A stretch of DNA of 64,000 nucleotides from Candidatus Uhrbacteria bacterium (lineage in GTDB: Bacteria; Patescibacteriota; Patescibacteriia; GWA2-47-26). A program made the position numbers and the translations under genes. Position 1 is the stretch's first letter, and the number at the start of each line of letters is the position of its first letter. Below the pieces are notes generated by a model, which was not told the DNA's origin, did not search any database, and saw only the letters and a program-made list of their open reading frames with translations. Positions 35,887 through 36,708 of this stretch are shown one piece after another. The stretch is taken from positions 68,046-132,045 of the forward strand of contig JACPJN010000007.1 of NCBI GenBank assembly GCA_016187515.1, written 5' to 3'.

Positions 35887-36708
35887 TCACACTCCTGCCA
35901 TTTCAGGAAGCTCTTTAGCAATACTCTCCACAAAATAGCGCGCTTTGGGTTCTTCTCCAAAGTGCGCACGGATCATGGCATTGGCAATGGTCTTGAGCTC
36001 GCGAGCCACGGTCTCGGGCATCTCCAAATGCGAAAGAGGAGAAACGAGGATAGTGTCGAGGGTATCGAGGGTGAGTGATGACACTGGAAACGCTGCTGTG
36101 CCGGTCTTGTGGAAGCACTCTTCACACAATACTCCTCCCCGAATCGCGTCAAAATGTCTAGAAAGTCCTTCCACCCCGGCTTTGCACAGCACACAATTGC
36201 GCAACTCCGGCCCAAACCCGGATTCTTTAAGGAGTTTCAGCGCAAAACTATTCATAACCCCTCCTGCACCTCCCCTTATCTTAAGGGGAGGATTGTTGGC
36301 GGCTCCCTCCCTTAAGGTAAGGGAGGGTTGGGGAGGGTTATGTAACAACTTCAATACATCCAACAACAACTCAAACACTCCCCACTCTTTTGTGCCGGGC
36401 CGCAGTACCAGATCAACCAGTGATGCCGCGTACATCGCTTCCCCCATTTTTTCCAAATCACCCCACAATTCCGGCCAACGATTCTGCACCCGCACCTGCG
36501 CAATCCGGTCAAACCGCCGTCCGCGCGCAAACATCAGGTCGCACAAGTAGAGCGGCTGCAAATGCGCGACCAATTTGCTTTGCGGCTTGCGCACTCCTTG
36601 TGCCCAAGCGTCAACTTTGCCATGATCAGCCGTGAGCACGCTGTAAATCCGGTCGTACTCGCCAATATCGCGATAACGGAGAATGATACCTGTTGTATTA
36701 TACGTCAT
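35887..36708 (-). CDS. recO: DNA repair protein RecO with an in-frame repeat-encoded insertion of about 30 aa
   Basis: N-terminal OB fold MTYNTTGIILRYRDIGEYDRIYSVLT, and C4 zinc motif CVLCKAGVEGLSRHFDAIRGGVLCEEC. Insertion HNPPQPSLTLREGAANNPPLKIRGGAGGVMNS. Confidence 0.85.
   Translation of the reverse strand: MTYNTTGIILRYRDIGEYDRIYSVLTADHGKVDAWAQGVRKPQSKLVAHLQPLYLCDLMFARGRRFDRIAQVRVQNRWPELWGDLEKMGEAMYAASLVDLVLRPGTKEWGVFELLLDVLKLLHNPPQPSLTLREGAANNPPLKIRGGAGGVMNSFALKLLKESGFGPELRNCVLCKAGVEGLSRHFDAIRGGVLCEECFHKTGTAAFPVSSLTLDTLDTILVSPLSHLEMPETVARELKTIANAMIRAHFGEEPKARYFVESIAKELPEMAGV
36253..36342. repeat. Family-1 element (outer stem plus two inner hairpins cctcccctta tc taaggggagg / ccctccctta agg taagggaggg), in frame inside recO
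   Basis: Seen in the sequence. Confidence 0.85.

Follow-up and report, generated by a model that had tools for sequence, protein, structure and literature searches.

A 64,000-nucleotide stretch of a Candidatus Uhrbacteria genome (contig JACPJN010000007.1, positions 68,046 to 132,045; hereafter the window) carries recO on its minus strand (35887-36708), encoding a 273-aa protein with hits to TIGR00613 and to the Pfam domains RecO_N (residues 1-74) and RecO_C, the latter in two stretches. Within this gene, and in frame with it, lies a 90-bp palindromic element (36253-36342, minus strand), which reads CATAACCCCTCCtgcaCCTCCCCTTAtctTAAGGGGAGGattgttggcggctCCCTCCCTTAaggTAAGGGAGGGttGGGGAGGGTTATG on the plus strand and has the termini CATAAC and GTTATG; its position and sequence agree with a preliminary description of this DNA. 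Only one of the three frames is open on each strand. On the minus strand the 30 codons read HNPPQPSLTLREGAANNPPLKIRGGAGGVM(NS), corresponding to residues ~122-151 of RecO, with the peptide stretches LLHNPPQPSLTLR and GGAGGVMNSFALK. Pfam searches found no domain within the insert, and Rfam searches at gathering thresholds found no match anywhere in the window, Rfam having no model for this repeat. An intein, an intron or a programmed bypass was considered and rejected, since the insert spans only 30 codons and contains no motif, and stop-free, frame-preserving copies recur in many genes.

The element is a doublet of two inverted triplex-motif units, as judged from its sequence, its predicted folds, and a DNA alignment with related copies in the genes encoding Fpg and the RecO ortholog P0002. 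The left unit (36253-36291) contains CATAAC (36253-36258), a putative third-strand block CCCCTCC (36258-36264), and the hairpin CCTCCCCTTA-tct-TAAGGGGAGG (36269-36291). The right unit (36305-36342) contains the hairpin CCCTCCCTTA-agg-TAAGGGAGGG (36305-36327), a putative third-strand block GGGGAGGG (36330-36337), and TTATG (36338-36342). Between them lies a variable spacer, ATTGTTGGCGGCT (36292-36304), which differs among the recO, Fpg and P0002 copies. The arms, CCTCCCC and CCCTCCC, are extended by TTA/TAA around a 3-nt loop, and in both halves a 7-nt block that mirrors the arm exactly is found at a distance of 2-4 nt from the hairpin. Folding of the whole element is predicted to be highly stable both as RNA (-49.7 kcal/mol, z = -4.8, with 0 of 200 shuffled sequences as stable) and as DNA (-26.6 kcal/mol, z = -4.9), and either half alone folds into a hairpin of 10 bp closed by a 3-nt loop, leaving a free tail (z = -3.5 to -5.0). 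The third block of the left unit is an exact mirror of the neighbouring arm of its hairpin (z = -4.1), and the right-unit hairpin (z = -4.6) allows seven purine-motif triads, six of G.G-C and one of A.A-T. The two inner hairpins of the preliminary description are present; the outer stem that it also proposed is not the conserved feature, and the outer blocks are better read as two triplex third strands that mirror the arms.

In order to establish how this gene differs from its relatives, 20 RecO proteins were aligned and a neighbour-joining tree was built. The commonest ortholog is ~251 aa long and has a 6-residue loop, EKGDGA, at the insert site, and 12 of the 20 proteins have a loop of just 6-8 residues there. 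The window RecO has 28 aligned residues at this position, a net gain of ~22 aa and not 30, because most of the ancestral short loop is absent; the element does encode the 30 residues previously described, but the growth of the protein over the ~251-aa orthologs is smaller. The tree resolves two groups, one being a clade with a conserved short loop. In the other, the loop ranges from 7 to 40 residues and holds several different repeat families: an insert of the same family occurs at this site in P0002, a half unit in P0005, a BoxC-like repeat in P0003, and unrelated inserts in P0007 and P0009. Since the site has been hit by several repeat families, the loop is a permissive hotspot that has been struck repeatedly. 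The window and P0002 proteins are ~71% identical, and between their recO copies the second unit has changed in step across all three blocks, which suggests that either the DNA structure is under selection or the unit was replaced from other copies. Comparison with related genomes thus places the insert, which most orthologs lack, among copies of a dispersed repeat, rather than among features conserved broadly in RecO without a palindrome.

Structure prediction from the ortholog alignment gave an AlphaFold model of good overall quality (pLDDT 86, pTM 0.83). A search of the PDB with the single RecO sequence gave no match, but Foldseek matched the model to the RecO structures 1w3s, 1u5k and 3q8d, from D. 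radiodurans and E. coli, with E values of ~1e-12 to 1e-13. The insert is modelled as coil (pLDDT ~57) between helices 109-123 and 147-162, and a profile alignment to 1u5k places the insert site at ~A124-P129 of D. radiodurans RecO, a loop joining two helices. The site is therefore predicted to lie on the surface, in a loop that links two helices of the helical domain, within an otherwise intact RecO fold. The preliminary description had located it between the OB-fold and zinc-finger regions; it does follow the OB fold (residues 1-76) and precede the zinc finger, but is inside the helical domain and not at a domain boundary. All 29 of 29 invariant alignment columns are retained in the window protein, including the four zinc-finger cysteines C172/C175/C195/C198. 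A second hotspot is found in the RecO alignment directly after the second CxxC of the zinc finger, where P0007, P0011 and P0021 (alignment columns ~236-280) contain triplex-motif-like and other repeat-derived peptides.

An artefact, whether an assembly chimera or a decaying recO pseudogene, is highly improbable. The source is a metagenome-assembled genome (MAG), and repeats may mislead assemblers. However, the window RecO is 100% identical to the NCBI RecO on a 318-kb Candidatus Uhrbacteria contig, P0002 derives from an independent SRA assembly and, like P0024, bears the same-family insert at the same site, the open reading frame (ORF) is full-length with every invariant residue kept, and the model folds as RecO.

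To define the repeat family, species-representative genomes were scanned for two CCCTTAnnnTAAGGG-type hairpins 15-40 nt apart, a pattern for which our own calculation gives <1 match expected by chance. The scan recovered at least 114 loci from many phyla with the common consensus (CA)TAACCCCTCC..CCTCCCCTTAnnnTAAGGGGAGG - spacer - CCCCCTCTTAnnnTAAGAGGGGG..GGGGGAGTTA(TG), ends included, and the termini of the recO element recur in >100 copies from other genomes. Patescibacteria among the listed loci comprise Uhr-, Doudna-, Zambryski-, Komeili-, Wirth- and Saccharibacteria; other phyla are represented by Geobacter and other Desulfuromonadales, Nitrospirota and Thermodesulfovibrionia, Dehalococcoidia and other Chloroflexi, a Bacteroidota isolate, Firmicutes, and others. 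Across 60 full doublets, each outer block was compared with the hairpin arm beside it, and an exact 7-nt mirror was found in 39/45 and 48/51 cases. An outer stem was accordingly rejected as a family-defining feature, the outer blocks being exact reverse complements in just 3 of these 60 doublets. Asymmetric TTA-loop hairpins have an exact arm mirror ≤22 nt away in 73% of cases and a direct copy in 6%, and at least six unit types covary three ways, with single T/A shifts occurring in step across all three blocks. A hairpin with an adjoining mirror block has, as far as sequence can tell, the anatomy of an intrastrand triplex, and the TTA-loop sub-type would be expected to form one.

By this anatomy, the recO repeat can be assigned to the BoxC / PIT / intrastrand-triplex-motif family as a TTA-loop sub-type, and the family itself is not new. 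Its literature includes work by Bachellier in the 1990s, by Hoyne and Maher in 2000, and by Holder et al. in 2015. The recO repeat shares with these repeats a pyrimidine arm, a complementary purine arm, a G-rich third block mirroring the purine arm, and short loops, as well as many dispersed copies, frequent inverted pairs, and a very wide phylogenetic spread. The recO copy does not match the TMECO consensus (CCCTCNCCC N3-6 GGGNGAGGG N3 GGGNGAGGG), having other arms, TTA/TAA extensions, and conserved CATAAC/GTTATG termini, and it therefore represents a different sub-type. The BoxC repeats of E. coli were renamed PIT elements and later triplex motifs (TM/TMECO), and are known from >260 genomes (PMC4666352). 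For the E. coli sub-type, circular dichroism and nuclear magnetic resonance (NMR) support triplex folding (Holder et al. 2015, PMC4666352), an interpretation with which the mirror symmetry found independently here agrees. G-quadruplex formation was excluded by NMR for the E. coli sub-type (PMC4666352); for the G blocks of the recO sub-type, a G-quadruplex reading may apply. The E. coli copies are reported to be always intergenic (PMC4666352), whereas the recO copy is intragenic. In the E. coli hrpB-mrcB spacer (L201/L202/L203), a TMECO doublet varies between strains: MG1655 and most others retain it whole, strain 07_3636 has lost 64 bp and keeps a single hairpin, and FDAARGOS_1295-type strains lack the doublet along with ~30 nt of flanking sequence.

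Further copies are abundant in the window. A census of the 64 kb found 15 pyrimidine/purine (Y/R) hairpins, of which 12 have a third block compatible with a triplex, against means of 0.65 and 0.1 in shuffled sequence, a dispersed copy number beyond chance. Three additional minus-strand copies lie in frame within genes. One (39089-39165) splits the PF00557 match of a methionine aminopeptidase gene (38647-39504) in two. Another (2212-2298) does the same to the PF02572 match of a CobA/CobO/BtuR adenosyltransferase gene (1841-2488), and its right half (2259-2293) matches the E. coli TMECO consensus exactly. The third (253-336), recognised from repeat family D20 and its translation, lies in an ORF that begins at 508 and is cut off by the edge of the window; its N-terminus was read by eye as that of a trypsin-like protease, and the truncated ORF has no Pfam match. 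Outside genes, a solo unit (589-625) consists of the hairpin CCCTCTCTTA-aga-TAAGAGAGGG followed by GGGGTGAGTTATG, and a doublet at 29264-29345 has its units in the opposite order (hairpin, G block, GTTACG … CATAAC, C block, hairpin).

Copies in other genomes occupy genes in the same manner. A copy nearly identical to that in recO, in both DNA and peptide (LLHNPPQPSLTLREGVKKFPPLKVRGGAGGVTKS), is found in frame in Fpg on contigs of three independent assemblies; its ends are CATAAC and GTTACG, and the native loop is short (GGSV) in Fpg orthologs. This Fpg loop (GRLLL-GGSV-TKSTE) is a hotspot of its own, in which closely related proteins of Patescibacteria carry at least five different inserts derived from repeats (P0046-P0066, alignment columns ~104-150). 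Among the matches listed, the doublet lies inside a long ORF at 12/23 Patescibacteria loci versus 2/91 loci of other phyla (Fisher p = 1.8e-8). In-frame hosts confirmed by Pfam are RuvB, ThrRS, TGT, MetRS, UvrB, DnaX and a pseudouridine synthase, and UvrA, PolA, UvrD, UvrC and PrmC were recognised by eye. A search of representative proteins with a 34-aa peptide gave four matches, two of which are host proteins (one MurB-like, one of unknown function), the query being short and compositionally biased and thus no measure of prevalence; a word-indexed protein search with a 41-aa peptide gave no candidates. In one Uhrbacteria genome, UvrA, MetRS and tRNA-guanine transglycosylase (L079, L088, L029) have two or three separate in-frame triplex-motif inserts each. 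A near-same element is found in frame at the same site of UvrB in a Saccharibacteria-labelled MAG (L041, 1844-1912) and a Zambryskibacteria MAG (L092, 5147-5215), which could mean that the insertion is old, that it was transferred, or that the binning is at fault. We found no report of this in-frame habit, for Patescibacteria or for triplex-motif repeats, in the open-access literature, and the colonisation of Patescibacteria housekeeping genes by these repeats appears to be unreported.

The closest parallel in behaviour is provided by the Rickettsia palindromic elements (RPEs), which are ~100-150 bp long, are not known outside Rickettsia or to be related in sequence to triplex-motif repeats, and for which we know of no associated enzyme. 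RPEs are defined as palindromic repeats inserted in frame in genes (Ogata et al. 2000, as reviewed in PMC10969869). In-frame palindromic repeats are present here in recO, CobO, Map and the protease-like ORF, and elsewhere in Fpg, RuvB, ThrRS, TGT, MetRS, UvrB and DnaX. Both kinds of repeat insert into unrelated housekeeping genes of small, gene-dense genomes, are read as a family-specific peptide, and are thought to occupy permissive surface sites, although RPEs are not known to have a triplex-type mirror block. By behaviour, and not by sequence, the recO repeat would thus work like an RPE in a Patescibacteria genome.

The recO element belongs to a dispersed repeat family, is absent from most orthologs, has in-frame copies in unrelated genes, and shows mirror covariation. 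We consider it likely, with good confidence, that the 90 bp are a copy of this dispersed and probably mobile repeat, which landed in recO and survived. A length that is a multiple of three, a stop-free frame, and a surface-loop site would have made the insertion tolerable, and the insert would be translated as a flexible Pro/Gly-rich loop with little effect on RecO. Where intergenic space is small, frame-preserving and stop-free insertions at permissive loops may be the only ones to persist, with the doublet of two inverted ~40-nt units behaving as selfish DNA inside a coding gene.

The stability of the fold raises the alternative that the element is kept in recO for its nucleic-acid structure, acting in polymerase or ribosome pausing, expression tuning, or as a recombination hotspot. 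The second unit differs between the window and P0002 in a way that preserves structure rather than peptide, and TM repeats are reported to block polymerase in vitro and, in E. coli, to mark loci that are unstable (PMC4666352). We nevertheless regard such a role as unlikely: most RecO orthologs do without the insert, the same loop bears unrelated repeat families in other orthologs, and the same element resides in many unrelated genes. In addition, the work of Maher and of Holder found no promoter, terminator or regulatory effect (PMC4666352), and replacement or gene conversion from other copies explains the preserved structure equally well.

It is more doubtful still that the insert has been adopted as a useful feature of the RecO protein, such as a flexible Pro/Gly loop touching RecR, SSB or DNA. 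An open frame and a loop kept in at least two lineages whose proteins are ~71% identical (the window and P0002) would fit this view, and RPEs have been discussed likewise (PMC10969869). However, the peptide follows from the repeat consensus and recurs unchanged in Fpg, ThrRS, UvrA and TGT, the modelled insert has low confidence and no predicted secondary structure, and sister orthologs have just 6-10 residues at the site.

A candidate enzyme for the movement of these repeats is encoded near the window start. A gene for a DUF559 protein, a predicted Vsr-like nuclease (1344-1844, minus strand; PF04480, E = 2.6e-36; core 1455-1790), is bracketed by inverted units at 1419-1460 and 1795-1826. At the ≥114 element loci, tblastn recovered eight more DUF559 genes, mostly bracketed directly by units in the order hairpin, G block, GTTAC/GTTATG, gene, CATAAC, C block, hairpin; in some of these loci the ATG of GTTATG is the DUF559 start codon. 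In the reverse test, 80 independent metagenome DUF559 loci were picked by protein similarity only. Y/R hairpins were found ≤160 nt upstream of the gene in 56/80, downstream in 57/80, and on both sides in 45/80, compared with 0/88 equal-sized control windows 700-900 nt away. The third block lies on the gene-proximal side in 40/56 versus 10/56 cases upstream and in 44/59 versus 6/59 downstream. The hairpins, with 40 distinct arm sequences, sit a median of ~38 nt before and 15 nt after the DUF559 homology region. DUF559 genes and the repeats are therefore associated, a result that does not extend to causation, and we found no open-access paper tying the two together.

The DUF559 alignment contains an invariant ExDGxxH, a catalytic-type motif, and its profile matches PDB 3hrl ("endonuclease-like protein", E = 6e-33) and 3r3p, the catalytic domain of the intron homing endonuclease I-Bth0305I (E = 4e-4). 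YcjD/DUF559 was earlier predicted to be a Vsr-like PD-(D/E)XK nuclease (PMC1189080). By analogy with RAYT transposase genes, which REP sequences bracket, DUF559 is a candidate mobilising enzyme and the most likely agent to move the repeats, its gene being bracketed by the inverted units. In E. coli K-12 (1351040-1351406), the 3′ end of a second DUF559 gene survives as a remnant 165 nt downstream of ycjD, with a TMECO repeat after it.

A broader proposal can be put forward tentatively, as a possibility that we take seriously without holding it to be probable: DUF559 and two inverted triplex units would form an unrecognised pan-bacterial mobile system. In this system, a ~430-bp cassette would encode a Vsr-like nuclease that recognises a folded triplex/hairpin DNA end, and its non-autonomous BoxC/PIT/TM doublets would colonise genomes, including, in gene-dense Patescibacteria, the frames of essential genes.

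The same nuclease genes admit another account, possible but rather doubtful, in which the insertion into recO is real and DUF559 is not the mover. DUF559 would then be a selfish gene resembling a homing endonuclease, which enters doublets of the hairpin-G block / C block-hairpin type that already exist, with the 40-nt units as homology arms, the repeats themselves having spread by another route such as replication slippage, recombination or another enzyme. The profile match to the I-Bth0305I catalytic domain argues for this, as does the placement of DUF559 exactly between the GTTAC and CATAAC termini. "Empty" doublets with 4-11 nt between these termini are found in the window (29264-29345) and in many Chloroflexi, and their unit order is the one seen around DUF559 genes; in the recO-type doublet the units are arranged the other way round. 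On the other hand, homing would not account for how hundreds of solo and doublet units have spread, cleavage by DUF559 is only predicted, and the sub-types of the two flanks often differ (identical arm in 19/45), which is poor for homing by homology.

Returning to the reading of the recO element as a copy of a mobile repeat moved by DUF559, several observations weigh against it. Insertion boundaries lack nucleotide resolution: the element has the inverted termini CATAAC/GTTATG, but no near-identical filled/empty pair was found, the closest insert-free RecO and Fpg being 66% and 70-73% identical, respectively, and too distant for this purpose. The filled and empty hrpB-mrcB alleles of E. coli show instability, with no clean insertion or target duplication. 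Translation of the insert and its rough neutrality are what we infer rather than observe. With regard to the enzyme, Holder et al. report that the surroundings of the E. coli copies revealed no mobility genes (PMC4666352), and the BoxC/PIT/TM literature describes none, in contrast to the DUF559 association seen here. The units around the window DUF559 gene are BoxC-like (CCCTCTCCC type) and not of the recO TTA-loop sub-type, and the association is limited to one DUF559 subfamily because the profile was built from repeat-associated genes. Finally, the order of the recO doublet, third block-hairpin … hairpin-third block, is the reverse of that bracketing DUF559. We speculate that this order is the junction expected from a circularised bracketed cassette.

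Comparison with known mobile systems reveals partial likenesses. Like REP/REPIN sequences with their RAYT genes, the triplex units are short and structured, have inverted doublets as the replicating form, and bracket a small nuclease-type gene in inverted orientation. Unlike REPs, which are extragenic, they have no GTAG head, and their flanked gene is a PD-(D/E)XK Vsr-like DUF559 and not a Y1 (HUH) RAYT transposase. An identity with REP/REPIN was rejected on the latter ground, the flanked gene being DUF559 (PF04480; related to the 3hrl and 3r3p nucleases). The recO repeat also resembles miniature inverted-repeat transposable elements in being small and non-coding with terminal inverted symmetry, and such elements are found in frame in genes now and then; for the recO repeat, however, no target-site duplication can be defined, and there is no parental insertion sequence with a classical transposase. 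The EDxHD / Vsr-like homing endonuclease I-Bth0305I (3r3p) shares with DUF559 a profile-detected catalytic domain and the character of a small selfish nuclease gene, but resides in a phage group I intron, whereas DUF559 here is free-standing between triplex-motif repeats.

The window is rich in other repeats as well. At least three further families of intergenic palindromes consist of tandem 8-9-nt words and often abut start codons: GTAAATCAAG-type palindromes (10306-10400, 33122-33225, 43320-43405, 48481-48566, 50034-50128, 60354-60457), TTATTGAG-type palindromes (6541-6637, 40789-40883, 45858-45946, 47998-48086, 49211-49297, 53426-53500, 54693-54782), and CAGTTCAC-type palindromes (41949-41993, 45368-45448, 47045-47125, 49625-49712, 50952-51044, 51459-51539). 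Directly downstream of recO, a 124-bp imperfect palindrome of ATTACAAAT/ATTTGTAAT words (35748-35871) fills the aspS-recO spacer. The region 11400-20100 contains very large genes with cysteine-rich tandem repeats and Glu/Gly-rich low-complexity stretches (repeat families D5-D16).

The in-frame colonisation of repair, replication and translation genes described here is an RPE-like phenomenon beyond Rickettsia. It offers a possible explanation for some odd insertions in proteins of the reduced Patescibacteria genomes, and such inserts affect the annotation, alignment and structure prediction of these proteins. BoxC/PIT/TM repeats are among the most widespread bacterial repeats, and to our knowledge no function, origin or mobilising enzyme is known for them; the link to DUF559, including E. 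coli YcjD, makes the question of their origin testable in E. coli. If DUF559 and its bracketing units do form a mobile system, this would provide an origin for repeats that have been unexplained since the 1990s, and would mean that the surface loops of Patescibacteria proteins have been remodelled on a large scale by doublet insertions.

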